DNA of 63,748 bases, from the IMG/VR virus record IMGVR_UViG_3300042465_003545, positions 1-63,748 of that record; one strand, given 5' to 3'. The position numbers and the translations under genes are program-made. The notes under the pieces were generated by a model, which saw nothing but the letters and a program-made list of their open reading frames with translations, was not told the origin of the DNA and made no database searches. The DNA is from a virus (lineage: Duplodnaviria; Caudoviricetes). Shown piece after piece: positions 9,429-50,388 of the stretch (position 1 is its first letter; the number at the start of each line of letters is the position of its first letter).

Positions 9429-9671
9429 ATGAAAGTAAACACTGCTGCCACTAAGGCAAAAGAAAACGGTCGCCTCATCATTCAAGGCGAGACAAAGATC
9501 AAAGTCAATGATTGCGTGGCAACACGCGATTTCCATGCGTTCTTCCGCGTGGTGTGTCTTTGTTATGTGGGGGGACTCAAGTTCTTCTCACTTGAGAAGA
9601 TTGCCGTGCCGCCGCGCATTGTCGGGCGCATTGCCCCGTTCAGCGGCGATGAGTTGTACGTCCTGATCTAA
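9429..9671 (+). CDS. Hypothetical early protein (80 aa)
   Basis: ATG after TACACAAT; bounded by the two 80-bp repeats. Confidence 0.6.
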   Translation: MKVNTAATKAKENGRLIIQGETKIKVNDCVATRDFHAFFRVVCLCYVGGLKFFSLEKIAVPPRIVGRIAPFSGDELYVLI

Positions 9672-9680
9672 CCTCCACGA

Positions 9681-9760
9681 CATTCGAGTTAGCCCACGCT
9701 AACTCGGGTGTCCTTACAGTGCACACTCACAAGAGTGCATTGCAAGGACACAAGTCCATA
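9681..9760 (+). repeat. 80-bp direct repeat, copy 2
   Basis: Matches 9343-9422 with two mismatches. Confidence 0.9.
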
Positions 9761-20994: not shown

Positions 20995-21033
20995 AGCCCA
21001 CCCTAAGCGTAATGCTCGGGGTGGGCTTTTTTT
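20995..21033 (+). terminator. Rho-independent terminator at a convergent junction
   Basis: AGCCCACCC...GGGTGGGCT followed by a T tract. Confidence 0.8.
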
Positions 21034-27000: not shown

Positions 27001-30000
27001 TCTTAGCCGACACTACATCAGGCACGTCCAACTTGCGCCTTTCGATCTCAAGATCCACTGCCTTTTGGCGGAGACCTTCGAGCGATTTAGACACTGTTTG
27101 TATCTCTAACTCTTTAGCCGCTATAAGGGCATCGTTCTCATACTCAGCATCTGAAAGCTGCTTTATTTCTTTTTTGATCTCACTTTTGCGTTTGGCAGCG
27201 GGCTTTTTCCTAGGGTTGTTTAGCTCAACAATAAGTATAGCTCTGTCTTCTCTAAAGGCGTCAGTAGTATCCCTAATACCCCGAATGTCATCGCGGATAG
27301 AGCGAATGTTAGCCATTGCACTGTCCCTATTCTGGATAGCCTTATTGGACGCGACTACGGTTGGATGCTTATCAAGAGCGGTACCCGACGCAACTTCATC
27401 TAGGCTCATACTCCTTGCGAGTTGAGATTTAAGATCAGCAACTTTGTTATCAAATGATAACAGAGCTTCTGCCGCTTTCTGAGTTCGTGCCTCTGCTTTT
27501 TTAAGCGCGTTCACTTCTTTAGTCGCGGCTTTCTTAGTCGGGGCTGCTGCCTGTTTCGACTCGTTGAACGCTACCTGAGCCTCACCAAGAACTTCAGACG
27601 CCTTCTGGAGTTTCGCGCCAAGTTTGGAGCCCTTATTACTCATGTCTTGGACAGCCTTCTTTTGCTCATTAACCAACTTAGGAAGCTCAGCCTCAAGGGT
27701 CGCGATAGTTTGTCTAAGGTCGGCTACTGTAGCCTCACCGAAACGAATAGTCCTAGTATTGTAACCGCGCACAGGCTGCGGTTTCGGAGCCCCGAGTTCG
27801 GGTTCAGGTATCGGGGTTACGGTAGCCCCTTGGTAGAACTCAGTTAGGTGTTTACGGACACTGTAAAATTTAACGCCCTTTTGTAGCGATTCGACAACTC
27901 GCTTAAAGTGGTTTACTTTTCGAGTGAGCGGATGCACACCACTTATGATGTCTATCTGCCCTTCTTTATGTTTGCGCATCTCAAGTAATTCGTCCAACTC
28001 TATGTTTAACGCACTGACTCTGACTTGGGCTTCAATGACAGTCATATTTGCGTATTCCTTATTCCTATTACGGAACTCTTGGTTATCCGCATTGGCTATG
28101 AATGAATTAAGGGAGCGGATAGAGTTACTAAGGCCACCTTTCCGATCTTCTATGTGTGAAATTTGTTCTTGTAGCCCCTTGATTAAATTCCGTGCGTCTT
28201 CAGTGATAATTATTCTAACACTACCTCTTTGTTTTACAGCAAGTTTTAGAAAATTCTCTGCGGTGGTCAGCGCCTTACGATGGTCTGCTTCTCGTTGAAT
28301 CAGTCTACGAATACCCGCACCTTCTTCTGACGTAGTGATCTTGACCACGCTATCGTAGTAGTCGTTAATAAAGTCTAGCTCGTTGGGGCCTTTTTTGGTT
28401 TCCTGTTTCGTTGGCGGACGTAGCGTTCCACGAGTAATCGGAAGCGTCTCTAATCGAGCTTGCACATCTTTGACAGACGGGGCTTGATCCATACCCTCAA
28501 ACTGAGCCCGATCAGGGAGCCAACCGAGATAATACATATACGCCGCAAGTTTGCGACCTTCTGTCGACGTGCTGAGATTTTTCACAGCATCACCCATAAC
28601 CAATAGCTTAGCGCCGAAACCGTAGGAGGTGTTGCCCGATACTTTTCCAGCTATGTTTACGTTGTAGAGCAACGCACTGATGACCGAGGATACACTAGAC
28701 TCATCATTGATAACCGTAGTAGGGTCTAGTTTGTTAACTAAGTCCACGAGTAGCGCCCTGATCATTGGGTCGCCCTCTGCGGCTGCGGTAAGAGAATCTT
28801 CCGTATTAGCATAAGAGTATTCTACGTCCTCGCTACTTGCAGCCCCAAGAATGTCAGACATCCTATCCAGTTTGCTTGAGAACGTGTCAAAGTCTTCTCG
28901 GAGGTTTGCCTCTAGGGTGAAACTACCTTCTTCCGACGCGGTCAAAAGAGCGTCGAACGAGGTAGATGGCACTTGGGACGCAACATTTGATTTCTTTGTG
29001 CGGTGACGTCCGTGAACTTCTGTTAGTATTTTACCTAGGTCTGGTGGGCTTGTGAAGTCGCTATACCTAGACGTAAAGTCAGCGTCGGGGACAAACAATT
29101 TTAGTCCAAGAGATTTCTGGAGCATGAACATTCCAAAGTTGGATAGGATAGCCCGATGGCGCACCTCTCCCGTAAAATTCATACCCTTAGAAAGATGCGG
29201 GAACGTCTTCTCTATTGTGGCCGCCGCCAATTCAAGCTTCACGCCCGCTGCTATGAAATTGCTCATAGCCTGTGCATCAAGGATTCCTCGAAGCTGCGCT
29301 TCAGACATTTCAGATACCGCTTCTTTTAGCGCCTTACGATTAGTTATGAAGTTAGCTTGTTGCTCGGGATCTACAGAAAGGAATAAAGTGCCATCTTTAT
29401 CTTGTGATGCTACCGCGTAATTCCAATTACCTACTTTGCCCTTGAACTGAATAGAGCGTGCGACTAGATCTGATACTCTGCTAGCCAGCACGAACATTCT
29501 CAACGCCGCAGTATATCCTATTACAGTATCGCCAATTATGTTAATCCGTTGTTGCTCGTCCCCTACTCTAAGGGTCTTGCTAGAAGCTAAAAAATCTCTA
29601 GTATTTACCCAAAGACTATTGAACAAATCTTCCGCGTTACTAGACGTAGGATTTATTACTTTAACGTAAGCCTGTGGTATCTCTTGGAAAGCAGATGAAA
29701 TATCCAGCGCATCCATGATGTTGTTAAGATTGGACGAAGCGCTAGTAGCGTTCTGCCCTTGGTTCTGTTCGTAAGGTGGCTCTACGTGAGTTACGAAACC
29801 ATTTACTACATTGATTGATGGGTTCAGCTTACCAAGATACTTATCGTCAACAAATATACCTGCGGTGCCCCCAGCCTCAAGCTGCGCCATAGTAATCGCG
29901 GGGTCATTAGTGAACACCATCGATTGGGTTTTTTTACCGTCTCTATCGGTTATAGTCTCGGACACAATAGGAGCCTTAACGGACGCCCCCTCCGCGTTAG

Positions 30001-33000
30001 TCCACTTGATATAGTCACTCTGGTTAAACGCTTTGTATTCCTCTGTCGTTGTAGGCACGTTGAACGTCGGATATTTTTCTTGGATAAGTTCTCTGAGATA
30101 CAGGCGCTTGCCCAACATGTAGGAGTTAGGGTTAGCCTCATCAATTCCTTTTGGGTTGAATATTCTACGGAAATCAGTAACGGGATACCCGTGGGCGACA
30201 AGCAAATCAAAAGCTTGTCTCTCTTCTTCCGTTCTAAACTTGTCCCACTTGTCCCGAGTGCTGTAGTCCACAATAGACGGTACTTTTTTATTCCGCTCTT
30301 TTTCTGCCGCTCTCTCAAGGGCTTCAGCCATAGCAGTGTCTGCCTTTGCTACGTAGTCATCCAACTGACTTAACGCAAAACTAGTAGCGACATCGAAGCT
30401 GTCTACTCCCTGCTCAGCGTTTTCTAGTGCGGCCATCTCGTTACTATAGCGGGTCTCAGTGCTCTTCAGTAGCTGCTCATACTTATCCTTGTTTTGGGCA
30501 TAAGCTTTACGGCTCCGAGGATTGTCCATGTCGGAGGTCCATCGATCCATTTTTTGTTTAAGTTCAAGTAGCGGTTTGATTATACGCTGTAACGTCTTTG
30601 TAATATCCGATACTGTGCGCGTGTCTACCTCGTCTTCAGTAGCGCCCGCCTCATCTTCAGTAGTGCCCTCCGCGTTGATAGGAGTGATACTCACGTCAGC
30701 AGGGGCTAGCTCAATATCCGCAAACCACTGGGAGCCCATGATTCTTACGGGGGCCATGTCCGCAATAGCAGCACCTTCTTTGGCTGCCATCTCGCGCATG
30801 TTCTCTAAGATATACTGGCGTTTACTACCGTCCTTTATGATGTTCTTTGAAAAAAGCTTACTGAATTGTGGGCTCAGTAAGTGTTCTTGGATCGCGGGGT
30901 CACCCGATACCCAAGCAGCTTCACTAGGAGTAAGCGCCTCGGTCCCAGTTCCTAGCGTAACGCCAGCAAACTTGAGACTCTGCGGCGACGGAGCTTCTTT
31001 TTCGATCTCGGGTTCCTCGTTCACTATACTTATGAAGGGAGTGAAATCTATTTGTGACACATTAACGGTAGCAGATATACCATCGAAACCTATAGTGACC
31101 TTCGTCCTCGCTACTTTCTCAACGACACCCTCGCGGACAGTTCCTTTGTATTGGAACTTGACAGTAGTGACCGCCCCGCTGCGTAGGGCTTTCATTACAC
31201 TACTGCGCTGCTCTTCGGGTATCTCAACAAAGTCGCTAGTGCCCTCGTCTTCTTCATCGACGTAGATCATGTTGTAGACTCTGGTTGCTTCTTCGAGTTC
31301 TTCGGCTAAGTCTACACTCTCTGGGTTCGTCTCCACAGCGAGTTCAAGGTTGCTGATGACTTGCTCTAACTCCTCTTGACCTAGGTTGGCGTAATCAAAA
31401 TCAATCTCTGGGTCGAGTATCGTAGATTGGCTAGGCACTAATACTCCCTTATCGACATTAAGTGGCTCGCCGCCTTTGACAATAAGATGGGCGATTGCTC
31501 TGTTCTTTTGTAATCTGTCCGTATTAACTTTGGCATTAAACGCCTTAGCGGCTTCCGCTTGCTCTGCGGGAGTCCTGCCATACGTGTCAACTTCCAGATA
31601 GTCATCCGCGTTCTCAGAATACTCTGCGGCGTCTCCTTTGACACTACCTCCCATAGCCCTAAACGCATCGGACACTTTATCACGAAACTCTTCCGTGGGC
31701 ATATTACCAGCAGGGTCAACTTTCTTAGCGATATAATCCCCAACCACACTAGCGGTCGAGGGCTCTATTCCCGCACTAGTAAGTATCTTCTCCGCAATTT
31801 TGCTACGTCCTTTATTGGTTACTGTTTCTACTTCAGCTAGCTCGCCATCAGGTTCTGCGACAACATCGATCTCAGCTTCAGCGGCGGGCGCGTCTTCCGT
31901 AGCAGCCGCTTTCTTCCCCCTCTTTTTAGTCGTGGTAGTTTTATTTACTTCGGCTGCGGCAGTAGCATCCTGTTTCCGTTGCTCTTTAATCTGCGCCTTT
32001 TGTTTATCTTTCCGTTCTTTATTCAGCTTGGAACTACCTTCGATAGGCGGTGTGTTCTTCTCCGCCTCAACCTGTTCTGTGGTCCGTGGCTCCAGTGATA
32101 TTCCGTAGTATCTAGCCGTCTCAACAAGAGCATCTTCTTGTGTGATGTGGATATCCATAGTGCTGTCGCCTCCTATGCTCTTGGCACGGAAAACAGTTAG
32201 CCCTACAGCCTTGCCTTTTTTGTTGTAGCTTACTTTTGTAGCTGGTCGGTAACTCGCATGAGGAAGCGCGTAGTTGATCGTCCCTCTCTTCACGACAGGC
32301 GAGCCCGCTTTGATCTGACCCTCTTCATTCTTAGTAACCTTAATGCGTGACTTGCGCTCGATTCTACCCGACGCTTTATCCGCAGGGTCTCCTAAAACTA
32401 CAGAAGTTTCTCCCGTCTTCAAAGGTTTGAAGAACTCAAGAATCATGTTTCCTGCACCGTCTCGCATTACCTTACCGCCATTGCCATCAAAGTAAGCAGT
32501 GCTAAACTCGTAGTCAGCAAGAAGCCCCGTAGTCGGATCGGATACAGGGTCCCAGTCTACGGTCTCTAGCTCAGCGATTGTTTCAGGAGTAACCGCTGTA
32601 TCGACTGGCGTCTCCTTAGGGAGATTAGACTCTGCGATGACCGCGGCGAGTGCTTCTGCCGTTTTCGGGGCTCCAGCATCTGTAAGCTTGCCAGAGATCT
32701 CCCCGAACAACTGGAGACGCGCAGACATAATCTTGCGGTCTTCGTTCAGCTTTCCTTTCTGTGTGAGTGTAGGGGCTAACTGTGGGGCTACGTTGAACCC
32801 TACGCCCATGAGACCACCGAGACCAGCGGCATACCAGATATTCTTACCTATCTCTGCGATGGGCGTGTCGCGGTTCAGCGCGGCGTCTTCCACCATCATT
32901 TGAAACGCTTGATCGACGCCCTCCTCGAAAGCTTCTCCGCCCCCCTCTCTAGCCCCAGAAACAAGAAACTGTTTAACGGCGCCAGAAGTAGCTTTGCGAA

Positions 33001-35203
33001 TCTCCTCTTTAATCGTCTTGTCAGCTATCTTAGAAGACATAGCTCGTGTCGTAGAATATAACTTGCGAACTTGGTTAAACGTGAGTTCATCTAGGTTCCG
33101 CGTAGCAAGACTCTCTGGACCACCCGCCCCGAGAGTTGTCATACCTGCAACAAATAAACAGGAAAAAGACCCCGCAGCAATCGCGGAACCAAAAGCTTTT
33201 TGGTGCTTTTCCTCGTGGCTCATCGACTCGGGTAGCTGACTATAAATTGAAGCGTAGGTTCCTCCTGCTGCGCGTAGGAACGTAGTCGGTCCTGTTGCCG
33301 CGAGATTATTCAAGTAGCCGCCTTTACTAGACGCAAAAGTAGAGATATTATCCGCTATTGATCGGAGTGCGCTGCCTGTAAATTCCGACTTTGTTGCAGC
33401 AAGCGCAACTGACTCAGCAGCTTCCTTGCTCATACCCACCATCATGTTTTTTGCGGTGCGTGTAGCAAGGCTAGAGACCTCGCGCTTGACGACACTTGCA
33501 GCGGCCCCCCGCGCTGCAGCGCCGAGACCTGCTTTTGCTAGCGCGTAGGTTCCACCAGACACTGTGGATAAGGCGACGTCTATTACTATCTGGGGTAGCA
33601 TGTTAGCGATGTCTTGACCAACCCCAAATTTGTCTCCGAACATCTCAGCATAACGAGAGTAGCCCTCTGCTCCTTTACCCATTTCAGTAATAGTTGTTGC
33701 CGCGTCTTTGTTACCAAACAAAGCTGGAACAGCAACTGCTAGCGCCCCGATGCTCGTAAGGGTAGAATAAGCCATAGAACCTAGTCTATTTCTGAAGTTG
33801 TCGTAGTTGTCGTCATTGCTGACCCATTCGCTAATAAAGTCTGTGTCGGACTGACCTTTCTCTTTTGCTTTAGCATACGCCGTAACTGCATCCATATCAC
33901 GAGATGTGACAAGTCTGATCATCTCGGGAGCTTGAGCTTCGAGAGTCTTTGTCGCCGCGACGCGAGCCACGTTCTCCTGCGCAGCGTTGAGACCCGTAGC
34001 CGCGATCGCTTTATCCAACTCTTGTTTACGAGCTATAATTGCGGGGGACAAAATAGGAACTCCCGTGGACATCAATCGGATGCCTGTTTCTGGTTTGTCG
34101 GGGTTGTAGTTGGGTTGACTTCTAAGAGTTACGAAGTCATTACTAAAACGCTCAATTTCTTCCGCAGAGTATTTGCTGCCTATAGGCGAGCTAGCGATAA
34201 TTGCTGCAATGTCTGTGCGTTGTTTGAGAGCATTAGCGTTCTCGGCTTCGCCTCGTCTTTCAATACCTTCTTTGACAGCACCCAGTGACCCTAGAGGGGC
34301 AACTAGGCTTCCTTTTTTAGCTTCGCCCACAGTATAAACTACTGAGTCTTTTGCAGCGGAAACAAGATTACCAGTAGCCTCGGCTGCCGTATCCCAGAGC
34401 TTCCCAAAAAAACCTTTGTCCGCTTCCTCTTCGTCTTCCTTGCGCTTCTCGTTAATAGCGTCAACGGCTCCTGAGAAGTTTTCATCGCTGCCAGCAAGTA
34501 AGTCAACGTCACCAAAGAACTCGTTACTGCGTTCGACGTCTGCGTTGCTGCTAGTTCCAAACGCACTCGTCTGTAGCAAGTAGTTAACACCGCGTAAATC
34601 GTCTGAGCCAATAGCCCCCCGCGATACTAAGTCGTCGACAGATTTTCTAACGGTGTCTTCACTCCAGTTAGGTCCAGCCTTCAAAGACCTGTTACCGTCT
34701 TTGTCTACAATGGCAACAACAGGAACTTCGCCACGGTTAAGGGCACCAAGTTTTGACTTAGTGGTGATGTAAGGGTCTTTGATAATATCAGCAACACGAT
34801 CTTTGTAGCTGTCCGCTTGTTCGTTAAGTCCTAATCTGCGGGATGAAACATAGCGTCGAATAACATCTGCTTGGTCTTGATCAAGTAGGTCTTCCTCTTT
34901 GGCGTAGCCCGTAATTTGATTGTATACAAACTGTGCATCGGCATCAAACGTATCATCGGGTGCCCCCAGTGTTTGCTCGACTGCCTGTTTTTCTTCTTCA
35001 GTGGAATCCTCTCTAAGGATGTTTCTACTGTATAAAGATTTGCCCACCCCTTGTCGGATGCCCTCTTCTACTTCGTCGTTGTATGTTCCGTTCTTGAAGT
35101 GTTCTGCTCGGACGTATCCAGCAAAAGACTTTAATTGTTTAACGGGATCGGTTTCGGTCGAAGATTTCGACCACGTATCAAATGATTGGTTTAGTTCCGA
35201 CAT
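21032..35203 (-). CDS. Giant (4723-aa) polyvalent / internal virion protein with two HExxH metallopeptidase motifs and two ART-PolyVal-like segments
   Basis: HELTH at 26348-26362; HEVAH at 24515-24529; AWHYTS...FGGWFYFS...FFLNL...GYDSI...QIKS and AIHFS...FGNGFYA...RNPL...HDALVI; long coiled coils. Confidence 0.75.
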   Translation of the reverse strand: MSELNQSFDTWSKSSTETDPVKQLKSFAGYVRAEHFKNGTYNDEVEEGIRQGVGKSLYSRNILREDSTEEEKQAVEQTLGAPDDTFDADAQFVYNQITGYAKEEDLLDQDQADVIRRYVSSRRLGLNEQADSYKDRVADIIKDPYITTKSKLGALNRGEVPVVAIVDKDGNRSLKAGPNWSEDTVRKSVDDLVSRGAIGSDDLRGVNYLLQTSAFGTSSNADVERSNEFFGDVDLLAGSDENFSGAVDAINEKRKEDEEEADKGFFGKLWDTAAEATGNLVSAAKDSVVYTVGEAKKGSLVAPLGSLGAVKEGIERRGEAENANALKQRTDIAAIIASSPIGSKYSAEEIERFSNDFVTLRSQPNYNPDKPETGIRLMSTGVPILSPAIIARKQELDKAIAATGLNAAQENVARVAATKTLEAQAPEMIRLVTSRDMDAVTAYAKAKEKGQSDTDFISEWVSNDDNYDNFRNRLGSMAYSTLTSIGALAVAVPALFGNKDAATTITEMGKGAEGYSRYAEMFGDKFGVGQDIANMLPQIVIDVALSTVSGGTYALAKAGLGAAARGAAASVVKREVSSLATRTAKNMMVGMSKEAAESVALAATKSEFTGSALRSIADNISTFASSKGGYLNNLAATGPTTFLRAAGGTYASIYSQLPESMSHEEKHQKAFGSAIAAGSFSCLFVAGMTTLGAGGPESLATRNLDELTFNQVRKLYSTTRAMSSKIADKTIKEEIRKATSGAVKQFLVSGAREGGGEAFEEGVDQAFQMMVEDAALNRDTPIAEIGKNIWYAAGLGGLMGVGFNVAPQLAPTLTQKGKLNEDRKIMSARLQLFGEISGKLTDAGAPKTAEALAAVIAESNLPKETPVDTAVTPETIAELETVDWDPVSDPTTGLLADYEFSTAYFDGNGGKVMRDGAGNMILEFFKPLKTGETSVVLGDPADKASGRIERKSRIKVTKNEEGQIKAGSPVVKRGTINYALPHASYRPATKVSYNKKGKAVGLTVFRAKSIGGDSTMDIHITQEDALVETARYYGISLEPRTTEQVEAEKNTPPIEGSSKLNKERKDKQKAQIKEQRKQDATAAAEVNKTTTTKKRGKKAAATEDAPAAEAEIDVVAEPDGELAEVETVTNKGRSKIAEKILTSAGIEPSTASVVGDYIAKKVDPAGNMPTEEFRDKVSDAFRAMGGSVKGDAAEYSENADDYLEVDTYGRTPAEQAEAAKAFNAKVNTDRLQKNRAIAHLIVKGGEPLNVDKGVLVPSQSTILDPEIDFDYANLGQEELEQVISNLELAVETNPESVDLAEELEEATRVYNMIYVDEEDEGTSDFVEIPEEQRSSVMKALRSGAVTTVKFQYKGTVREGVVEKVARTKVTIGFDGISATVNVSQIDFTPFISIVNEEPEIEKEAPSPQSLKFAGVTLGTGTEALTPSEAAWVSGDPAIQEHLLSPQFSKLFSKNIIKDGSKRQYILENMREMAAKEGAAIADMAPVRIMGSQWFADIELAPADVSITPINAEGTTEDEAGATEDEVDTRTVSDITKTLQRIIKPLLELKQKMDRWTSDMDNPRSRKAYAQNKDKYEQLLKSTETRYSNEMAALENAEQGVDSFDVATSFALSQLDDYVAKADTAMAEALERAAEKERNKKVPSIVDYSTRDKWDKFRTEEERQAFDLLVAHGYPVTDFRRIFNPKGIDEANPNSYMLGKRLYLRELIQEKYPTFNVPTTTEEYKAFNQSDYIKWTNAEGASVKAPIVSETITDRDGKKTQSMVFTNDPAITMAQLEAGGTAGIFVDDKYLGKLNPSINVVNGFVTHVEPPYEQNQGQNATSASSNLNNIMDALDISSAFQEIPQAYVKVINPTSSNAEDLFNSLWVNTRDFLASSKTLRVGDEQQRINIIGDTVIGYTAALRMFVLASRVSDLVARSIQFKGKVGNWNYAVASQDKDGTLFLSVDPEQQANFITNRKALKEAVSEMSEAQLRGILDAQAMSNFIAAGVKLELAAATIEKTFPHLSKGMNFTGEVRHRAILSNFGMFMLQKSLGLKLFVPDADFTSRYSDFTSPPDLGKILTEVHGRHRTKKSNVASQVPSTSFDALLTASEEGSFTLEANLREDFDTFSSKLDRMSDILGAASSEDVEYSYANTEDSLTAAAEGDPMIRALLVDLVNKLDPTTVINDESSVSSVISALLYNVNIAGKVSGNTSYGFGAKLLVMGDAVKNLSTSTEGRKLAAYMYYLGWLPDRAQFEGMDQAPSVKDVQARLETLPITRGTLRPPTKQETKKGPNELDFINDYYDSVVKITTSEEGAGIRRLIQREADHRKALTTAENFLKLAVKQRGSVRIIITEDARNLIKGLQEQISHIEDRKGGLSNSIRSLNSFIANADNQEFRNRNKEYANMTVIEAQVRVSALNIELDELLEMRKHKEGQIDIISGVHPLTRKVNHFKRVVESLQKGVKFYSVRKHLTEFYQGATVTPIPEPELGAPKPQPVRGYNTRTIRFGEATVADLRQTIATLEAELPKLVNEQKKAVQDMSNKGSKLGAKLQKASEVLGEAQVAFNESKQAAAPTKKAATKEVNALKKAEARTQKAAEALLSFDNKVADLKSQLARSMSLDEVASGTALDKHPTVVASNKAIQNRDSAMANIRSIRDDIRGIRDTTDAFREDRAILIVELNNPRKKPAAKRKSEIKKEIKQLSDAEYENDALIAAKELEIQTVSKSLEGLRQKAVDLEIERRKLDVPDVVSAKTIKLREQITEAEGSRVPLADEAALAESEAQYTRDSVAMATTVSLQEVDTAAASVEATARLEKAQADYQAIQDQLTPIETRAVEARSNLNALQTKLNMMRVELSTRTTGRNIRASLSDTAVRLIDERIRINTQEAQEMGLNESTEKALRHIAKNGAPHLRIMANLLLSNLDIVSQIRVSMTNIDPQVAGLYINDTLVILNMAGHNGRGLGDVLIHELTHALTVNALKDPKIAKRIESLRILAKRKFTEAGFPVDDAFYRHAFSDNEEFLSAVFTDKHVQDILRNVEVAGGRSWLQRIWDAITSIFGNRSKQVDTALDELIRFVDMSAMTYGSRSASIKQRSAVDAADAAYDRARIRLNNKTMDLIESMAGGDMNLRFAGNALTGADYARHADLESRKGSLTPDELAEAQALVDKAARGVGFDTEAWHYTSSPEQFTEFDSSMAGDFGGWFYFSPKNVNRSGKSNSRLAGKFFLNLGNTLIKPSYETVAGVGTPNSYITEADTDGYDSITGTEQGLGGVEVAEYITKSPAQIKSAEPFTGVPLQERFSPMSNDIRFSPSEEPSLSIRAIHFSREPMSLKNEVSQEERDNVFGNGFYAMEEQDEAMWSNMGRWTRGAFRNEVTINARNPLVITPASYLELFTEAEKQSKERGYARIVLETAMLERMRAGSHDALVIRGFNSDRIQTLQEEAGNRISKVFTPQFEEGRTSGRFTNGAERDVVAERVSQEVAGMPYDALFYLSYMQNQIFVPPQNTLSVVAEGTKPPSSIESRIRNILPAGFNLVEDTFITQPFGVKGSTIMFNPEVAARSVEDADPELQDQILSTLIKHEVAHVAANAVMKPEDYDAVAEGLGSDIMDKVASDYYRAAYPDVAERKRVIEEDRSSGQLTDRVLAAEWFRSKVEKAVNGKSTEEVIRELKGNKTLIGTFLKYFQEFLAILRGGQKDSFSLGVAADISKASRIYEDLLNNGIPKAEPEPQEGVGHTAELIEAIRTGQGNQAFFVQPIAFADKKNTTVETVWGRISKLIRNLPADINKLVRDREGDIRAAQFLMERFAPHYKRFLEPALKAGADINDVGMILGTTAPTMDDAAVARVDVVVEAFRKTIASGTPVDEVDKLVSAEKTRALAAEKKIQDTAFLNNQKAATARMDAIAPEFSKFLQLFRKEIDKRQDAIGYSHSAGIYLTRTYKFFNTEGWASAARDADGATYRLNGEEINFGDLRAKAAQSYEADVIAEYAEAGTTLTPSLLTRGVQDKLDNLLKWLSENATVDKGESLSQDLRRFMPKNNVDSAVRELLGETKNPMENALRTLHYVGVLAANKKALTAIKDSLLLSGLGSDTEKAGYVQIFGTGVTKSREPLGGLYVRADIAKELEAEFGSNARKLMKHTEGVLNKVTGGLAKMSGAAMTTKTLMTIGFYTRNILSNQVVLIAAQGIIPLASSGLDLYKSYRLSGIANFESRGKDATEAELAEIQELIRLGVLRDSSSRGQFDDLMRGYADRAGVTFETAMDDIIKVASKGDLNALQNMASRVAGGAKGTIEFLAAVNSWVDDACKAQVYFFEKNELAKAYPSNTAEWHSEQAATKVKLTMPSHSEQLDIVRSFNRNPLSLFVFPFARWKTEVLRTYVNTQKLAYREITSGNSRMFVRGLRRLAGSATVTTMGMTALNSVLAAAFRLFTGQDDEEDKDKDKNAVVVDDPAVLSALRVAYPEYQKGHSLRVTTNGRELSVIDMTAIHPYATLIDSATIIREGLATGKGVDTKKLASYFASQFVGSQIASGAVLDIVNNQNDFGQKIYEETDDSLVQVRKMITYVGAQAYKPGIVAKIQASTRKGEANPDYIWAGEFLGARPKVYTLDQVARAGFYSLKSESDSIKRQRSALSSGRAISEEDVRDIMVTTQEADDRTQARLHQFMNAMRSVGTSERVIVQRAVATGMSKKRVAEAIEGRNTTWRGNADWEKGMIDNVTQTGEADARERSAMIDRAYDSMPRETSVRNIK

Positions 35204-40429: not shown

Positions 40430-40735
40430 ATGGAAAAAGTAAGATGGAAAAAAAGTAGTATCGTGGGGCTTAACACCCGCGCTGTCATTATCGGTAACCT
40501 CAAGAGGGTGATGGTAAGGTATAAAGGGAGAATACTGATTTGTAACCCTATTGAGAACACAGCAGACGTAAAGTTCAAACTCGTGGTATTCAACCCTAGC
40601 AATTATGGAGAGGATATGGACTATCGTATTGACCTCCTCGTAGAAAAACTCGTCATAGTCCCACTCGACAGAAGTGACTTCCTAAACCCAGCGTGCCGCT
40701 TTGGCGGGAAACAACTAGTCAGCTTTGTGCGTTAA
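40430..40735 (+). CDS. Hypothetical protein
   Basis: 101-aa ORF with an AT-rich leader. Confidence 0.65.
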   Translation: MEKVRWKKSSIVGLNTRAVIIGNLKRVMVRYKGRILICNPIENTADVKFKLVVFNPSNYGEDMDYRIDLLVEKLVIVPLDRSDFLNPACRFGGKQLVSFVR

Positions 40736-41369
40736 GATTGTGAGAAACGTAAACTGCCCAAAGACAAAAATCTACGTTCGCTGCGATGCGTTTGGGGGGT
40801 CTCCTGAAGAGTTTGAACCAGCGTGGTTGGTGTCCGTAAGAGCGATGCGTAACCGACCACTATGCTTCCAAGCATGGATTGAAAAGTATGCAGCGTGCTA
40901 CGATAAGATTCCACCTCAGTGTATCTACTGGTATGAGCCAGACGGTGACCAGCTCGATCTGCCACTGCACAAAGTTCAGATGTGGGAGTGTCTCTCTGGC
41001 TCGATTGAGTTGTGGCAGAAGTCCCAGCTTGCTGATGTCCCGATGCTTGTGAATTTAGGCGAAGGCAAATCCATCACGGGCCACTATTGGTTTACGCTGG
41101 ACTTCCTTCCAGAAGGTAATTCTTTAGGCGTTATGGATATCGGAGACGTAGAGCTTCTTGAGGAACATAAAGAAGGCAACGTGATTAAACTTGCCAACGG
41201 CCAAATTGCAATCTATCCCAACAACCGTCTGAAGTGGATGCCGATCAGCTTAACACCTAAAGAAGCTGGCGCACGTATTCCAGACTGGAACGTCGCTACC
41301 AACGAACAGTGGGACGACTGGTGGCAGGACTCAACTGAATTTTTAGGCGATGCTAAATGGGCTTACTAA
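40725..41369 (+). CDS. Conserved phage hypothetical protein
   Basis: 214 aa; ...QMWEC...YWFTLD...EHKEGNVIKLANGQIAIYPNNR, a pattern I recall from aquatic phages. Confidence 0.75.
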   Translation: MCVKIVRNVNCPKTKIYVRCDAFGGSPEEFEPAWLVSVRAMRNRPLCFQAWIEKYAACYDKIPPQCIYWYEPDGDQLDLPLHKVQMWECLSGSIELWQKSQLADVPMLVNLGEGKSITGHYWFTLDFLPEGNSLGVMDIGDVELLEEHKEGNVIKLANGQIAIYPNNRLKWMPISLTPKEAGARIPDWNVATNEQWDDWWQDSTEFLGDAKWAY

Positions 41370-41392
41370 TAAACAACTATGAACACACTACA

Positions 41393-41656
41393 ATGAGCGA
41401 TAGGCCAAGAGGCTTCGTTGGCGGAACGTGCGATTATTGCGAAGGAACTGTGCAACCTGAAGAAACAAGCCATCACATAACTTTTAAATTAAGGCATAGG
41501 CTAGCTTCCGAAAACCCACGAATAGTTGAATATTGTTTCAGTGATCGTCCCGATGAAATCTTTACTGATCGTGATCTTTTAATCAAACATCGTGGGCTTA
41601 CTCACGAAGAACTTCAGCAAACCGTAACCGTAATCCCCACCCACACCTCTCTATGA
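41393..41656 (+). CDS. Small hypothetical protein
   Basis: Probable ATG at 41393 (MSDRPRG...CDYC). Confidence 0.55.
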   Translation: MSDRPRGFVGGTCDYCEGTVQPEETSHHITFKLRHRLASENPRIVEYCFSDRPDEIFTDRDLLIKHRGLTHEELQQTVTVIPTHTSL

Positions 41657-41973
41657 ATACACCAAAAGACTCAACGGAAGACTGTTGTCATCCCACGCCT
41701 TGTTCGGCTGCTTGCCCCAAGTGCGGCAGCATGGACATCCACCGCCATCATCGCGCCCCGAAAGAAGAGTGGTCGCGCAATATCGGGGAGAACCGCAAGA
41801 ACTACGAAACGCCGTGGGTCAGCTATGTCGGATACTCCGCAAAAGCTCTCAAGGAGTGCATTACCCACCACTGCCGCTGCTGCCAGTGGAAATGGGAATC
41901 CGATTGTCTGCCGAACACCGATGTGGATGCATCGGCGGTCGCCGCCACTCCGAATCAAAATCAAACTCCCTAA
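41653..41973 (+). CDS. Cassette-1 gene: zinc-ribbon protein whose termini are encoded by attC-like arms
   Basis: CPKCGS...CRCCQWKW; the N-terminus reads through CACGCCTTGTTCGGC and the C-terminus through GCCGAAC. Confidence 0.7.
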   Translation: MNTPKDSTEDCCHPTPCSAACPKCGSMDIHRHHRAPKEEWSRNIGENRKNYETPWVSYVGYSAKALKECITHHCRCCQWKWESDCLPNTDVDASAVAATPNQNQTP

Positions 41974-42031
41974 TCACATGGAAAATCAAATACAGAGCGC
42001 CCCGCCGATTGCATCTCACGCCTTGTTCGCA
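41910..42031 (-). mobile_element. attC-like recombination site (122 bp), canonical on the minus strand
   Basis: Minus strand reads TGCGAAC-AAGGC-GTG(A)GATGCA(A)TCGGCGG...CCGCCGA-TGCATC-CAC-ATCGGT-GTTCGGC: R''/L''/L'/R' boxes, 5- and 6-nt spacers, two unpaired bases. Confidence 0.75.
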
Positions 42032-42241
42032 TCTTTGATCCACGATCTAAAATCAAAGACCATCACCCTAAAAGATGCAGCTAATCGGCTGCGAACTGAA
42101 GGGAAAATGCGGTGCAACTGTGATCTCGATAACTGGGAGCCGCTGAAGTCAACGGGTCACTCCCATGTGTGTCTGATACACATCACTGCCACGGGACTGA
42201 AAAACAGCCCGTATGATTATGTTGCGAACAGCCACGTATGA
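41978..42241 (+). CDS. Cassette-2 gene: small Cys/His protein starting inside the attC loop
   Basis: MENQIQSAPPIASHALFA...RCNCDLDNWEP...GHSHVCLIH...ANSHV*. Confidence 0.7.
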   Translation: MENQIQSAPPIASHALFASLIHDLKSKTITLKDAANRLRTEGKMRCNCDLDNWEPLKSTGHSHVCLIHITATGLKNSPYDYVANSHV

Positions 42242-42242
42242 G

Positions 42243-42323
42243 TGCCACGCAACCGCTGCCCAACGAGCCGAGGCTTTCCTCCGCACGATTGGAAAGTGGA
42301 CAACCAACCAGAACGTAATATGA
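42243..42323 (+). pseudogene. 3' remnant of a paralog of the next gene
   Basis: Reads CHATAAQRAEAFLRTIGKW...*, compared with CAPATQRAEAFLKTLGLW in 42320-42664; no start codon. Confidence 0.65.
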
Positions 42324-42664
42324 ACAAAGAACAACAAAGAATCGCCATCGCGGAGGCTTGTGGGTGGACGGTGGAGAGGGACAGCGAAGGATATTGGAGA
42401 GCCAGAGACGGGATCGGAAACTACACATTTGAGCTTTGGATAAGCGAAAGCAATGTGTGGAGTGTTGGCCTTCCAGACTACCTCAACGACCTCAACGCGA
42501 TGCACGAAGCTGAAAAGTTATTAGATGGCATGGATCAAATTACATATCTCGCAAAACTGCACGAGGGCAATCATTATTGCTCGTGGGCTGGGACATGCGC
42601 CCCCGCCACACAACGAGCAGAAGCGTTCCTGAAAACCCTTGGACTATGGAAGAAAGAACAATGA
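42320..42664 (+). CDS. Small phage protein, paralog of 18381-18734
   Basis: QRIAIAEACGW...PDYLNDLNAMHEAE...QRAEAFLKTLGLW. Confidence 0.8.
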   Translation: MNKEQQRIAIAEACGWTVERDSEGYWRARDGIGNYTFELWISESNVWSVGLPDYLNDLNAMHEAEKLLDGMDQITYLAKLHEGNHYCSWAGTCAPATQRAEAFLKTLGLWKKEQ

Positions 42665-43023
42665 ACGAGACAGAGACACCGAGGACGGACGAAATGCGTG
42701 AAGCTTACGTGAGTTTCCAACACGGCAAATATACCGTCGATGTGGGGGATGTTTTTGACTTTGCCAGAAAACTTGAACGCGAGCTTGCCGCCATGACCAA
42801 GCAGAGGGACGAGGCGCGGGAGTTGCACAGAAAAGCTTTGCGCGAACGAGAGGCAACAGAAAAGGAAGTTGATGCAATGCTGGAACGAGCGCACAAAGCA
42901 GAGCGCGAGCGGGATGAAGCACGTCGCCTTGCCGAGAAATACCGCTACTTGTCATGCGACAGCCTAGAAAAAGCTGATGAAACGCTGCTGCCTTGGGAAA
43001 TAACAACCCCGAATGAACCATGA
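42661..43023 (+). CDS. Coiled-coil phage protein (TPRTD...ARKLEREL type)
   Basis: ATG overlaps the upstream stop; RDEAR occurs twice. Confidence 0.75.
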   Translation: MNETETPRTDEMREAYVSFQHGKYTVDVGDVFDFARKLERELAAMTKQRDEARELHRKALREREATEKEVDAMLERAHKAERERDEARRLAEKYRYLSCDSLEKADETLLPWEITTPNEP

Positions 43024-43080
43024 ACGACACACCGACACCAAGGACGGATGCTCATTTCAAACAACCACAAACCATTGACA

Positions 43081-44388
43081 ATGAAAACACTATACCCAGC
43101 ACAAGACGCTGCCGCAAAATCACACGTGCTACGCCTAGCAAGAGGAGGAGCCTCTCTCGACACATCAGACACAGGGACGGGTAAGACTGTCGTTGCCGCG
43201 ATGGTAGCGCGTAACTTTAACCACGTATGTATCGTGTGCCCTAAAATTGTAATACCATCTTGGGAGCGGGAACTCAGAGACATGGGCGTCGAACCGTTGT
43301 TCATCATGAACTACGAAAAGCTACGCACAGGCAATACTACGTTTGTAACCAAAGCAGCTAAGACATTCACGTGGCACGTGCCTAACGATACGCTCATCAT
43401 TTGGGACGAGGTGCATAAATGCAAATCGCCCATATCCCAAAACGCAGCGATGCTCATAGCTTCAGTGAGCGCGGGACTACGCAACCTCATGCTGTCTGCT
43501 ACCGCTGCTAAAGACCCCACAGAGATGAGGGCTATCGGATACGCACTCGGACTCCACAACCTTAACAAGGATACCCCTAAGCTAAAAGGATGGGTGCGCT
43601 GGATGCGTGAATACGGCTGTCGCATGGACCCGTTTCGGAAGTGGGTAGCGGGAGCCCTCAAGCATCTTGTTAGACTCAATGCTGACATCTATCCTGCACA
43701 CGCTTCCCGAGTCCGTGTTAGTGATCTCCCTAGCGCTTTCATGGACAACCGTGTGATAACTGAACCACTCTTATTTTCGACGTCAACAGACATTAAAGAC
43801 CTTTACTCAGATACTATATCAGAGATGCTTCTCGGACTCGCGTCAGGTGAGCACAAGATGGAGCCCCACGCACTGACGCAGATACTCCGTGTTCGACAAC
43901 TCGTCGAAGCCCACAAAGTATCGGATACATGCCAACTCATTAACGACGCAGTGGATCAGGGGTTCAGCGTAGCCGTGTTCGTAAACTTTACAGACACCGT
44001 CAACATGTTCCTGAGAAACTTTCCTGACGCCGCAGTCATCGTTGGGGGACAGAGCGCGGAAGAAAGAGAGCGACAAGTCCAGCTATTCCAAAACGATGAA
44101 CGCCGCGTAATCATCTGCAACACATCGGCTGGTGGTGTCGGGGTATCCCTCCACGACACCCACGGTAATTTCCCGCGTATGTCGCTGATCAACCCCACGT
44201 ATAACGCAGTCGACTACACCCAAACACTGGGTAGAATTTACCGTAATGGGGCGAAGTCGAACGCTATCCAACGCGTCCTGATCGCTTCAGATACAATAGA
44301 AGAAGAAATAATTTCAATAATTGAAAGAAAAAGATTGCAATACTCCACACTCCACGATATAACAACCCCAGCACAAACTAAATCTTAA
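43081..44388 (+). CDS. Superfamily 2 helicase
   Basis: DTGTGKT, WDEVH, LSAT, GGVGVSL and QTLGRIYR. Confidence 0.9.
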   Translation: MKTLYPAQDAAAKSHVLRLARGGASLDTSDTGTGKTVVAAMVARNFNHVCIVCPKIVIPSWERELRDMGVEPLFIMNYEKLRTGNTTFVTKAAKTFTWHVPNDTLIIWDEVHKCKSPISQNAAMLIASVSAGLRNLMLSATAAKDPTEMRAIGYALGLHNLNKDTPKLKGWVRWMREYGCRMDPFRKWVAGALKHLVRLNADIYPAHASRVRVSDLPSAFMDNRVITEPLLFSTSTDIKDLYSDTISEMLLGLASGEHKMEPHALTQILRVRQLVEAHKVSDTCQLINDAVDQGFSVAVFVNFTDTVNMFLRNFPDAAVIVGGQSAEERERQVQLFQNDERRVIICNTSAGGVGVSLHDTHGNFPRMSLINPTYNAVDYTQTLGRIYRNGAKSNAIQRVLIASDTIEEEIISIIERKRLQYSTLHDITTPAQTKS

Positions 44389-47763: not shown

Positions 47764-50388
47764 ATGACGCCACAACGCACTATGAATACCTATGCCCTCG
47801 ACTTTGAGACCTACTACGATAAAGAATGTTCGATTAAAATTCTAGGAACACAGGGTTACTTTAACCACCCCAATTTTGACGCCTACATGGTCACTGTGTG
47901 GGGTTCTGATGGGACACGCTACGTGGGGGACCCTCGAAACTTTGACTGGTCTATTCTGAACGGTAACAGGGTTCTGTCCCACAACGCTTCCTTTGATGAG
48001 GGTGTCTACTTTCACGGGGTCTCTAAAGGGTGGTGGCCGCCAGCGCTTCTTGCTGAGTGGTTATGCACCTCTGACATGGTTGCGTTCCTCGGACTGCCAC
48101 GAAGTCTGAAGGGCGCAGTTAATACTGTGTTTGGCATTGAAATCAGTAAGGACACTCGGGACAACATGAAGGGTAAAGCTTGGGAATCTATGACTCCTGA
48201 CTTTCAAAAAGAAGTATCCGATTACGCGTTGCGCGATGCGGAATACTGCTTTAACTTATGGGAGAAACTTGGCGACAGATGGCCCCTAAGAGAACGCAAG
48301 ATTAGCGCGATCAATCGGCGTATCGCGCAGCGCGGAATCCCTATTGATTGGGACGCGCTCCAGAAAAATCTAGGTATAATCAATACCGCTCTGTTTAACG
48401 CTGAGTCATTGATTCCTTGGATTGAGGACTATACCCCACTCTCTCGAAAAGCGTTCAATGCACAGTGCCGTAAGCAAAATATTGAGCCACCGAAGTCTCT
48501 TGCACAAGCAAGTCCTGAGGCGGCTAAGTGGTTCGAGGTGAATGGCGCTGAGTGTGTATGGGCAAAAGCTGTGTCCGACTACCGCAGAATCAATAGCTTC
48601 AAAAAGAAACTAGAGTCCTTCCAAGGGGGCACACTAGGTGACGGGCGTTACTATGGTGGGTTCCTATATTTTGGAGCTTCGACAGGACGCTTCTCTGGGT
48701 CAGGCGGCAACCTGAATCTACAAAACCTACCTCGTGGGGAGATGTTCGGAGTTGATTTTCGCAAGATGATTAAAACTCCAGAGGGTCGTGCTCTTGTTGT
48801 TGTCGACCTATCTCAGATCGAGGTGCGCACCTTGTGCCACCTAGCGGGGGACACGAAAGCTCTACAACTGATCAAGGAGTCAGAAGACATTTATCATGCC
48901 TTCGGAGTCCTGCTCGGGTTACACGATCCTGCAAACGGACAGCTTAAAAAGTATGACCCAGTTCTCAGACACAAAGTTAAATCGATCGTTCTTGGGTGTT
49001 TTGGCGCGGAGACCATAGTCCTAACCAACAATGGGTGGAAAAGAATTGTAGATGTCAGCTTGACAGATATGGTATGGGACGGTATTGAATGGTCTCACCA
49101 CGAAGGAGTTATATGCCAAGGAATAAAAACAACGATAAACCAACACGGAGTAGCTGCAACAGCGGACCACGAAATCCTAACGGAACATGGGTGGAAGGAG
49201 TGGTCCGAGGTCCTTACAGAGAGTTCCCTTTTCCAGTCGGCTATAAAGTCGGGGAACTTACCATCGTTTGTTGGAATAGAAAAGACAGAGCCTATCACCC
49301 TATCGTTAAATGCTCGTGCGGGTGGCAAGGATTTGTTGATAGATACAACCTCAAATTTGGGAGGACTACCCGATGCAGAGAGTGCGCTGCTAGTAAATCA
49401 GGGGCTACCCTTTCTGAAAATTATGGGTGCGCCTCTATTTTACCAGACCCGCGAGAACGAAAAAGACTACTCGGAAGAATGTCAGCCACAGTCTCACGGT
49501 GTCATACTCCAGATAACAGAAACTACGGGCACTACGGAGCAAGAGGGATACACGTCCACCAACCTTGGAGAGACAACCGCGCAGAGTATCTGGCATATCT
49601 CCTCACGCTCGTCGGCTGGGACAATCCGAAACTTGAACTCGACCGTATCGACAACAATAGAGGATACGAGCCCGATAATCTCAGATTCACTACTAGGAGC
49701 CAAAATAGACTTAATTCCAGACGCAGTATTGCTAAACGACTTCGCGAGAGTAGAACTGACTTATGACTTAAAAAATGTGGGGCAGCGAAACAGATTCACT
49801 GTCCTCACAAGTGAAGGACCCATCCTTGTTCATAATTGTGGCTACGGAATGGGTGTCGATCGCTTTGCAGAGTTCAGTGGGCTAGATGAGAACGAGGCAG
49901 CAACTGCCGTAAACCTATACCGTAAGCGTATGAAGTCCGTAGTAAACCTATGGGGGCACTATGACGAGGGAATCAATTTCTCTATCGCGGCGGGGGAAGA
50001 GTTCAGTGTAGAGATCGCTTCAAGCCGTGTCCTTGGTTACGGGCGCATCAAGAAGATGAAGGACTCTAAGACAGGTAAGTTTACCAACGTGGGTAAGATT
50101 ATGCGCCAAGGTCGCCTGATGGACTTTAGACTTTGGGGTGGCGTTATAACCGAGAACGCAAGTCAAGGACTCGCACGCGACATCTTTTCCGACATGATGG
50201 TTCGGGTAGAAGAAGCAGGATACGACTGTATCATGCACGTCCACGACGAACTTATCGTTGAAGTGGACGAAGATAAAGCAGAGCTAGCATTAAAAGAAAT
50301 TCTAGCTATTATGTCCACTCCTCCTGAGTGGATACCAGACATCCCACTCTCTGCCGAGGGTCAAATCATGACAGAATACACCAAATGA
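47764..50388 (+). CDS. polA: Family A DNA polymerase with 3'-5' exonuclease, interrupted by an intein
   Basis: Exo I ALDFETY; TGRFSG, NLQNLPR; motif A DLSQIEVR; motif B KSIVLG|CGYG; ENASQGLARD; motif C HVHDE. Confidence 0.95.
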   Translation: MTPQRTMNTYALDFETYYDKECSIKILGTQGYFNHPNFDAYMVTVWGSDGTRYVGDPRNFDWSILNGNRVLSHNASFDEGVYFHGVSKGWWPPALLAEWLCTSDMVAFLGLPRSLKGAVNTVFGIEISKDTRDNMKGKAWESMTPDFQKEVSDYALRDAEYCFNLWEKLGDRWPLRERKISAINRRIAQRGIPIDWDALQKNLGIINTALFNAESLIPWIEDYTPLSRKAFNAQCRKQNIEPPKSLAQASPEAAKWFEVNGAECVWAKAVSDYRRINSFKKKLESFQGGTLGDGRYYGGFLYFGASTGRFSGSGGNLNLQNLPRGEMFGVDFRKMIKTPEGRALVVVDLSQIEVRTLCHLAGDTKALQLIKESEDIYHAFGVLLGLHDPANGQLKKYDPVLRHKVKSIVLGCFGAETIVLTNNGWKRIVDVSLTDMVWDGIEWSHHEGVICQGIKTTINQHGVAATADHEILTEHGWKEWSEVLTESSLFQSAIKSGNLPSFVGIEKTEPITLSLNARAGGKDLLIDTTSNLGGLPDAESALLVNQGLPFLKIMGAPLFYQTRENEKDYSEECQPQSHGVILQITETTGTTEQEGYTSTNLGETTAQSIWHISSRSSAGTIRNLNSTVSTTIEDTSPIISDSLLGAKIDLIPDAVLLNDFARVELTYDLKNVGQRNRFTVLTSEGPILVHNCGYGMGVDRFAEFSGLDENEAATAVNLYRKRMKSVVNLWGHYDEGINFSIAAGEEFSVEIASSRVLGYGRIKKMKDSKTGKFTNVGKIMRQGRLMDFRLWGGVITENASQGLARDIFSDMMVRVEEAGYDCIMHVHDELIVEVDEDKAELALKEILAIMSTPPEWIPDIPLSAEGQIMTEYTK
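48997..49836 (+). mobile_element. 280-aa intein in PolA motif B
   Basis: Block A CFGAETIVLT, block B ATADHEILT, block F TYDL...NRF and block G ILVHN followed by Cys+1. Confidence 0.93.
49113..49766 (+). CDS. HNH homing endonuclease nested out of frame inside the intein
   Basis: +2 frame: GYKVGELTIV, CSCG, CREC, RCHTPDNRNYGHYGARGI, LDRIDNNRGYEPDNLRFTTRSQNRLN. AAGGAG precedes ATG 49113 (alternative ATG 49089). Confidence 0.88.
   Translation: MPRNKNNDKPTRSSCNSGPRNPNGTWVEGVVRGPYREFPFPVGYKVGELTIVCWNRKDRAYHPIVKCSCGWQGFVDRYNLKFGRTTRCRECAASKSGATLSENYGCASILPDPRERKRLLGRMSATVSRCHTPDNRNYGHYGARGIHVHQPWRDNRAEYLAYLLTLVGWDNPKLELDRIDNNRGYEPDNLRFTTRSQNRLNSRRSIAKRLRESRTDL

Follow-up and report, generated by a model that had tools for sequence, protein, structure and literature searches.

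Evidence for reverse-oriented integron attC sites within the small genes of uncultured lake phages

The small-gene region

The stretch of DNA analyzed here (the window, 63,748 bp; IMG/VR record IMGVR_UViG_3300042465_003545) is the complete record of an uncultured lake-water phage, and our subject is a structured site at 41908-42033 on its plus strand that resembles the attC recombination sites of integrons and lies across the junction of two small genes. A preliminary description of this DNA had read the locus as a series of reverse-oriented, integron-like cassettes whose attC arms are translated; that observation is confirmed and its interpretation is supported, with some corrections of detail that are given below.

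The site lies in an interval filled by small plus-strand genes, which runs from a conserved phrog_3704-like gene (40725-41369), the left border of the variable region, to a helicase gene (from about 43080), the right border of the small-gene run. The variable region (41401-43079, +) comprises 1,679 bases, in place of which the closest relative, L003, has 648 unrelated bases.

Two open reading frames (ORFs) meet inside the site. ORF1 (41653-41973, +) would encode a Cys-rich protein of 106 aa (CPKC...CRCC); it starts in the loop of a decayed upstream site, reads the motif GTTCGGC as P-C-S-A and the motif GCCGAAC as P-N, and ends at a TAA (41971-41973) within the loop of the full site. Since the homologue in a related locus (L083) has Leu at the position of ORF1 M27, the upstream ATG in the loop must be the start. 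ORF2 (41978-42241, +; 87 aa) opens with an ATG at 41978-41980, separated from the ORF1 stop by TCAC, so that the arrangement TAA-TCAC-ATG of the preliminary description agrees with the coordinates; its product would consist of a 19-residue leader read from the attC arm and a Cys/His-rich body. Each ORF also crosses an AAC as an in-frame Asn codon (..LPN.. and ..VAN..), again as first described. The body of ORF2 belongs to a family of small Cys/His-rich phage proteins with homologues in 19 other viral contigs, and the four of these that were read (in L084, L086, L087 and L088) start without the 19-residue leader, indicating that the leader of ORF2 is supplied by the site. Neither ORF matched a Pfam or PHROG family, and the Protein Atlas returned a weak lead only for ORF2 (0.81, AbiTii-like) and no usable match for ORF1.

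Anatomy of the site and of the partial sites beside it

As described by Nivina et al. (2016; PMC5027507), the attC bottom strand runs from 5'-RYYYAAC (the R' box, cut within AAC) to GTTRRRY-3' (the R'' box), with bulges in L'' at position 16 (usually G), at position 23/24 (a conserved T) and optionally at position 20, a 6-bp stem separating the first bulge from the last, spacers of 5-6 nt and a length of 57-141 bp. The site at 41908-42033 (+) has this anatomy, its coding strand corresponding to the attC bottom strand. The R' box GCCGAAC (41910-41916, +) contains AAC at 41914-41916, which would place the crossover AA|C between 41915 and 41916. It is followed on the plus strand by a 5' spacer (41918-41922), the L' stem (41923-41938), a loop (41939-42001) that contains both the TAA of ORF1 and the ATG of ORF2, the L'' stem (42002-42019), a 3' spacer (42020-42023) and the R'' box GTTCGCA (42025-42031), with GTT at 42025-42027 to pair with AAC.

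In the DNA fold, the two unpaired bases that had been noted are T42016 and T42009. Counting from 42031 puts them at positions 16 and 23, and a 6-bp stem separates them. The spacers had been given as 5 and 6 nt; they are in fact 5 and 4 nt, beside a closing A-T or G-T pair, the 3' side being slightly short for an attC site. Box to box the site measures 122 bp. The fold of 41910-42031 is moderately more stable than chance would give, with z scores of -2.43 (plus) and -2.30 (minus), and on each strand 4 of 200 shuffles folded as well.

The order had been described as half site, full site, half site. The full site (41910-42031) stands, and the two others need to be redrawn. The first is a decayed whole site at 41614-41710 (+), which scores 15.4 bits with R1, a covariance model built from phage sites (see below; E 0.057 over the whole window, 0.00098 locally). 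Its left box has degenerated to CAAAC and its inner stems are partly deleted, its R'' box GTTCGGC (41702-41708) is intact, and its loop contains the start codon of ORF1 (ATG 41653). The third is a 7-mer alone: an orphan R' core, TGCGAAC (42224-42230, +), which is read as A-N in ORF2 and closes the second cargo, the remaining site being missing and R1 giving no match behind it. The complementary 7-mers reported to bound each cargo are present, GTTCGGC 41702-41708 with GCCGAAC 41910-41916 and GTTCGCA 42025-42031 with TGCGAAC 42224-42230.

The 13-mer CACGCCTTGTTCG occurs in two exact copies, at 41694 and 42017. Its count alone is not significant (18 of 100 shuffles reach at least three matches with at most two mismatches), and the copies are translated in different frames (TPCSA, HALFA), so that it is the nucleotides that are conserved and not a peptide. 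Rfam gave nothing at gathering score; with the threshold relaxed to E 10, the surroundings of the site returned just two matches, both of them weak and unrelated. In one sequencing run (X10), a contig agrees with the window as far as 42028, within the right box, where it passes into unrelated sequence, and 41944-42030 has about 2.5 times the depth of the bins on either side; both would be expected if another genome in the same lake shared the site and not the cargo.

A family of sites in related phages

With a neighboring conserved protein as query, 80 related viral loci were collected, and 41300-43100 was compared with all loci by blastn. L083 matches 41693-41916 at 97%, exactly from motif to motif, with different flanks; L031 has only the site in common with the window (41907-42030, 75% over 126 nt), and L025 part of it. 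The relatives' loci contain series of small genes that start about 45 nt before ..CTTGTTCG(G/C)C and end just past ..CGAAC. When 23 of the relatives' junctions were folded as DNA, one architecture recurred in most of them: an outer 6-bp stem, CGAAC(G)/(T)GTTCG, followed by a 5/4-nt internal loop; an inner part in which successive stems of 3 bp, 6 bp and at least 7 bp are separated first by a bulge and then by a bulged T; and a loop of 30-100 nt in which one gene stops and another starts.

Fourteen divergent phage sites, cut with two extra bases per side (90-137 nt), were aligned. CGAAC and GTTCG are invariant in all of them, the far bulge is T in 14/14, and an extra middle bulge is present in six. 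The near bulge is T in five sites, C in four, G in three and A in two, and in this the phage sites, with G in only 3/14, depart from attC as described in PMC5027507 (usually G). Covariation in the alignment is extensive: 95.3% of the cells are paired and all 16 inner pairs have changed on both sides, a level reached by 0 of 500 shuffles, and controls slid along the sequence are 28-44% paired.

The covariance model R1, built from these 14 sites, scores the window site at 89.7 bits on the plus strand and 10.1 on the minus strand. At E≤1 its matches numbered 55 in the first 100 loci and 74 in a further 100, and five whole records (G001-G005) had 11, 9, 8, 4 and 7 sites. Sites are co-oriented within each array, the exception being two opposite-strand matches elsewhere in G005, and their start-to-start spacing has a median of 319 nt (n=45). 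Two of these records, G002 and G003 (those behind L138 and L147), are complete, with about 39.8 kb, direct terminal repeats and nine and eight sites, respectively; other whole relatives with arrays include one of 61 kb and one of 73 kb. Array-bearing records of about 40, 61 and 73 kb indicate that the sites occur in more than one kind of phage, and with the window included the carriers fall into three or more classes of genome size (about 40, 61-64 and 73 kb).

Pattern scans of viral contigs yielded mostly chance matches without the family's features, and only a minority of those loci joined the family. In L029, at about 9622-9724, the boxes are extended into a longer near-palindrome (..CGAACGAACAAGG.. 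/ ..CCTTGTTCG..), and for this reason the right-core motif is present on both strands there.

The same type of site beside bacterial integron integrases

A scan for the box pattern CTGCCGAACG..CGNCTTGTTCGGC at the right spacing, in one genome per bacterial species, gave 53 loci. Many belong to Verrucomicrobiota (Luteolibacter, Haloferula, Opitutaceae, Akkermansiaceae), to Planctomycetota (Zavarzinella, Gemmataceae) and to Myxococcota-like genomes. In these loci R1 found 126 sites at E≤0.01, in dense co-oriented arrays. The integron integrase family TIGR02249 was found above its cut-off in 5/5 array genomes (334-456 bits vs 265) and in 0/14 controls. The record of Zavarzinella formosa DSM 19928 has 13 sites in the 12 kb directly upstream of intI, the nearest at about 155 nt, and Opitutaceae bacterium EW11 has five sites less than 4 kb from intI, with intI and the model orientation on the same strand, as expected for a standard integron.

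The preliminary description had proposed a scan with the attC covariance model, and this was carried out with a proxy, R2, built from 56 sites, all from intI-encoding bacterial genomes. In the 63.7-kb window R2 makes a single match, 41908-42032 (+), at 42.1 bits and E 4.2e-8, the next best scoring 12.4 bits; in the phage loci it finds 32 sites in 14 loci. Thus the chromosomal integrons of Planctomycetota, Verrucomicrobiota and Myxococcota-like bacteria carry the same attC type, each side's model finding the other's sites. TerL was not found with the window protein as query in five array-bearing bacterial genomes.

A Verrucomicrobia genome bin contig (L293) is unlike the other bacterial arrays in that its inter-site frames run with the model orientation (3 vs 0). 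AAC is in frame at 4/6 of its sites, and no TerL relative of the window protein was found in that genome. It may be a phage-like array within a bacterial bin.

Cassette units and breaks in homology

The first bases of an integron cassette pair with the cassette's own inner box and not with that of its neighbor. We therefore compared the bases that follow GTTCG with the complement of those that precede CGAAC at the same cargo's other end. Averaged over 34 non-redundant phage units, the prefix match is 2.24, vs 1.01 when permuted (reached in 0/10,000 permutations), so that the matched end 7-mers, which the preliminary description had seen in the window and called a hallmark of true cassettes, hold for the family as a whole. 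Rare variants agree as well (GTTCGACG/CGTCGAAC, GTTCGCCT/AGGCGAAC, GTTCGTTT/AAACGAAC, GTTCGGGAA/TTCCCGAAC and, in the window, GTTCGCA/TGCGAAC), and the bacterial arrays carry the same signal (2.23 vs 1.48 permuted, 0/10,000, 52 pairs). Such own-end pairing, a feature of attC cassettes, implies that a unit on the plus strand lies between two successive AAC triplets, beginning with the C of the first and ending with the AA of the second, and holds the site with its start codon, followed by the cargo. In the window this would be 41916-42229 (+, 314 nt), delimited by its own-end pair, the family test and the homology breaks; it spans the C of the R' box, most of the attC site, the start and cargo of ORF2 and, at its end, CGAA from the following R' core.

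We compared 29 array regions all against all, counting positions from the AAC core of R' (L) or from the R'' box (R), and located most homology breaks of cargo-bearing matches at the AAC core. L025 and L029 share 469 nt at 93%, ending at L+9; L029 and L133 share 529 nt at 98.7%, starting at L+1; the match of L109 with L224 starts at L+1 and that of L048 with L254 at L-5; and the matches of the window with L083 and of L010 with L121 both end at L+4. The closest relative, L003, has 99.3% identity to the window up to 41400 and 85.7% from 43080; the left break follows ..GAGCGA and L003 continues with CGAAC, so that identity ends inside CGAAC. The proposal that cargo is swapped at AA|C is thus supported by most breaks between relatives. 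It does not cover the two pairs that break at the R'' box as well, the window and L083 at R-9 and L010 and L121 at R+11.

Breaks at both conserved boxes are what might be expected if the sites were simply conserved repeats, shuffled by homologous or short-homology recombination through a phage exonuclease and RuvC-like resolvase or a host system, with no part for the integron integrase IntI. The phage does encode an exonuclease (phrog_69) and a RuvC-like resolvase, and some relatives are similar at the junction only (window/L031, 75% over 126 nt; L025/L031, 86% over 124 nt). There is also a documented precedent in T4-type phages, whose promoter/stem-loop elements (PeSLs) are described as mobile regulatory cassettes that mediate shuffling and for which circular intermediates (mini-circles) were shown (Arbiol et al., 2010; PMC2839356). 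We regard this explanation as unlikely. It leaves unexplained why variable bases pair with the unit's own far end, why bulges are kept at positions 16 and 23 with an invariant T, why 16/16 stem pairs show compensatory changes and why the same type of site stands beside bacterial intI; nor is there any excess in 41200-43200 of the signals that define PeSLs (one promoter-like site vs 1.5 expected, and two terminator-like sites vs 2.8, both on the minus strand).

Orientation and reading frame

In the phage sites it is the coding strand's 3' arm that carries the bulges, which makes this strand the attC bottom strand. The reverse orientation given in the preliminary description is therefore correct, and it is opposite to that of the bacterial cassettes. 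In the bacterial arrays the longer inter-site open frame is antisense to the model orientation in 29 cases and with it in 8 (in EW11, nine against and none with); in the phage arrays the ORFs run with the model orientation in 20 cases and against it in one, with 24 ties.

The reading frame differs likewise. Of 74 phage sites, 24 were dropped because the core pattern was not found and four because the upstream frame was short; among the 46 evaluable sites, 45 keep AAC in the frame of the upstream ORF, and 43 of these 45 have a stop within the site. The bacterial arrays follow no such rule (AAC in frame 0 in 25/58). The other box of the phage sites, R'', is read in all three frames (16, 14 and 1 of 31). 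A frame that is fixed at the crossover only is what interchangeable units need if genes cross the joint, and this supports the earlier suggestion that each unit brings its own start and borrows its C-terminal tail and stop from the neighboring site. An alternative idea, that the sites close all three frames, failed (15/57 phage sites only) and was dropped; the in-frame AAC explains termination instead.

The hairpin could also have been selected mainly as a messenger RNA structure that couples or tunes the translation of the small genes, the likeness to attC and the shuffling being by-products. The stop and start do lie in the loop, and where an ATG could be picked the gap from stop to ATG is -1 in 11 of 31 sites; every array carries the structure on the transcribed strand; and covariation suits RNA pairing as well as DNA pairing. 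Even so, we consider this less probable still than shuffling by homologous recombination, since an RNA structure accounts neither for the pairing with the unit's own far end across 200-300 nt nor for the single frame of AAC, and it leaves unexplained both the homology breaks at the boxes and the presence of the same structure in bacterial arrays with genes on the other strand. An N4-like hairpin promoter and the end of a hairpin-binding (HUH) transposase were considered and set aside in favor of the attC match.

Recombinase, host and reading of the locus

No tyrosine recombinase (PF00589) was found in the window at E≤1, which agrees with the earlier remark that the genome has no integrase, nor in five site-bearing relatives, four of them complete. 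As regards a complete integron, then, the window lacks the recombinase at that threshold; attI and the cassette promoter Pc were not searched for. Set against the definition of a cluster of attC sites lacking an integron integrase (CALIN; at least two attC sites and no intI), the window has one strong site and one decayed one (E 0.057), and the relatives have 4-11 sites per genome without a PF00589 match. Since no tyrosine recombinase was found in the phage or in the five relatives, the integrase would presumably come from the host, and the natural candidate is that of a host with a chromosomal integron of the same attC type, which points to Verrucomicrobiota, Planctomycetota or similar bacteria.

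The reading that we prefer, with a probability of roughly 0.7, is that 41908-42033 is a true attC site, which together with the decayed site and the orphan core forms a short array without an integrase of its own, served by an integrase of the host. The identity of the site, its structure and covariation, its orientation, the frame rule, own-end pairing and the homology breaks at AAC are observed. A genuine integron-type site within coding sequence suggests that these phages are able to swap small genes in frame by means of an enzyme that they do not encode.

The mechanism would be as follows. In what would be an early, variable region of the phage genome, each array would present on the coding strand the order R' (..CGAAC), spacer, L stem, long loop, L stem with bulges 16/23, spacer and R'' (GTTCG..). 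A gene would start in the loop of one site, read through its 3' arm and then the cargo, cross the AAC of the next site as Asn and stop in the loop there. The mobile unit, beginning with the C of one AAC and ending with the AA of the following one, would carry its own start and take its last codons and its stop from its neighbor, and with AAC held in one frame any unit could come after any other. A host-supplied integron integrase would cut and join at AA|C on the folded coding strand.

Several points weigh against this reading. Only one site in the window is intact. Its boxes do not conform to the consensus RYYYAAC/GTTRRRY, since in all 14 sites GCCGAAC has the purine G at position 4, where RYYYAAC has a pyrimidine, and GTTCGSC the pyrimidine C at position 4, where GTTRRRY has a purine; the bacterial sites beside intI share this departure, which makes it a feature of the subtype and not a ground for exclusion. 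R2 is not fully independent, since its bacterial sites were chosen with R1; the position of those sites beside intI is independent evidence. The breaks at R'' mean that the same cargo stands behind different sites, which crossover at R' alone does not predict; they could come from recombination of the other strand, which in assays has a lower frequency (as reported in PMC9892861 and PMC5027507), or from ordinary homologous exchange. Phage and sampled bacterial arrays have no cargo in common (tblastx, E 1e-6), which fits separate cassette pools without proving them. The predicted translation of the arms draws on open frames and comparison. Contigs from four lake runs that cover 40900-43500 include no joint that removes a cassette, and contigs cannot show rare forms. 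Finally, no isolated relative of the phage was found (by DNA of 40700-43100, TerL or DNA polymerase) that would give the host.

The state of the window itself, where a single intact site stands with a decayed one and an orphan core, and where gene remnants are found nearby (42243-42320 and 43020-43050), would also fit a relic, in which host cassettes were once acquired by an ancestor of the phage and the sites are now inert and decaying. We think this very improbable. Relatives retain 4-11 well-formed sites per genome, with compensatory changes among the phage sites, and near-identical phages differ by whole units; the genes are oriented opposite to those of bacterial cassettes and the frame rule is specific to the phages; and there is, again, no common cargo with the sampled bacterial arrays.

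Going beyond the attC reading of the window, we tentatively propose, at somewhat less than even odds, that several lineages of virulent lake phages have co-opted host integron machinery, with reversed arrays, an in-frame Asn crossover, frame-keeping reshuffling and separate pools of cassettes. Under this proposal attC arrays would have been turned to make the recombining strand the coding one, the crossover triplet being held as Asn, and the host integrase would reshuffle the start and body of one unit with the tail and stop of the next, frames intact. A phage unit captured by the host would face away from the promoter of the host integron, so that the reversed orientation would keep the two pools functionally apart.

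Comparison with known systems

Integrons have been regarded as bacterial gene-capture devices. Clusters of attC sites in phages were first reported in 2023, chiefly as a means by which bacterial cassettes might be moved; Qi et al. (2023; PMC9892861) describe 17 integrase-less clusters, and IntI1 recombined 5/6 of the sites that they tested. The sites described here share with attC sites and CALIN the R and L boxes, an unpaired spacer, bulges at 16 and 23/24 with T, a variable loop, a length within 57-141 bp, co-oriented arrays without an integrase and pairing with the unit's own far end. They differ in that the phage genes are on the bottom strand, opposite to the usual orientation of cassettes; in that the site appears to lie inside coding sequence, with stop and start in the loop and both arms predicted to be translated; in that the crossover AAC is an in-frame codon (45/46); and in the fourth base of the boxes, which is off consensus. 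They are, in short, built into phage genes in the opposite orientation, with a frame rule that makes the units interchangeable, in arrays of up to 11. The phages also differ from those that Qi et al. describe, being uncultured lake phages without isolated relatives.

The bacterial chromosomal integrons share with the phage arrays the attC type and the own-end pairing signal, and differ in having intI beside the array, cassette ORFs antisense to the model orientation and no AAC frame rule, as well as in their cargo. The PeSL cassettes are the closest functional analogue in phages: as presented in PMC2839356, they too are repeated structured elements among small non-essential genes in variable regions, to which gene differences between relatives map. 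According to the same source, PeSLs consist of a promoter and a terminator between genes and recombine by homology; the present sites are in coding sequence and have attC anatomy, and the promoter and terminator that define PeSLs are absent here.

Our literature search returned no report of translated or reverse-oriented attC sites in phages; the supplementary tables of PMC9892861, which were outside that search, may list related phages. Thus attC clusters in phages are already published, and what is new is the translated, reversed and frame-keeping form. If a host integrase does act on these sites, this would provide a site-specific route to the mosaic accessory-gene regions of virulent phages, in a virus dependent on a host recombinase that it does not itself encode. 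It would also offer a lead to the host, in which an integron of the same attC type should be present, and it would single out a limited group of small early genes as candidates, for instance for roles in countering host defense.

Further features of the phage record

The stretch is present in 24 sequencing runs, all of lake water, and no RNA run was among those listed. Isolated phages gave no DNA match to 40700-43100 and no match to the window TerL; every match of the DNA polymerase to isolated phages is below 60% identity (28-32% among the matches listed). No tRNA genes were found in the window.

The family A DNA polymerase (47764-50388, +) has a PHROG 'endonuclease' match in mid-protein (residues 431-488), and distant relatives of the polymerase are annotated as intein-containing or have an HNH endonuclease alongside. 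On the minus strand, 21032-35203 is one open frame of 4,723 codons.

Two further repeats mark gene starts in and around the variable region. The first (family D1) is a 17-nt motif, CTATGAAYACAC.., at 41377-41393, 41651-41667, 42318-42334 and 43079-43095, which takes in an overlapping stop/start arrangement. The second (D2) is a 38-nt direct repeat with 84% identity, at 42652-42689 and 43011-43048, which spans the gene starts MNETETPRTD and MNDTPTPRTD, the second copy being a truncated start just before the helicase gene. Directly after ORF2, 42243-42320 (+), in the frame of the ORF 42213-42323, encodes ..AQRAEAFLRTIGKW..., a product much like the C-terminal end encoded by the gene that follows, 42320-42664 (..TQRAEAFLKTLGLW..). 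The stretch has the look of a 3' end left over from a paralogue that was lost, fused to the second cargo at the orphan TGCGAAC core.

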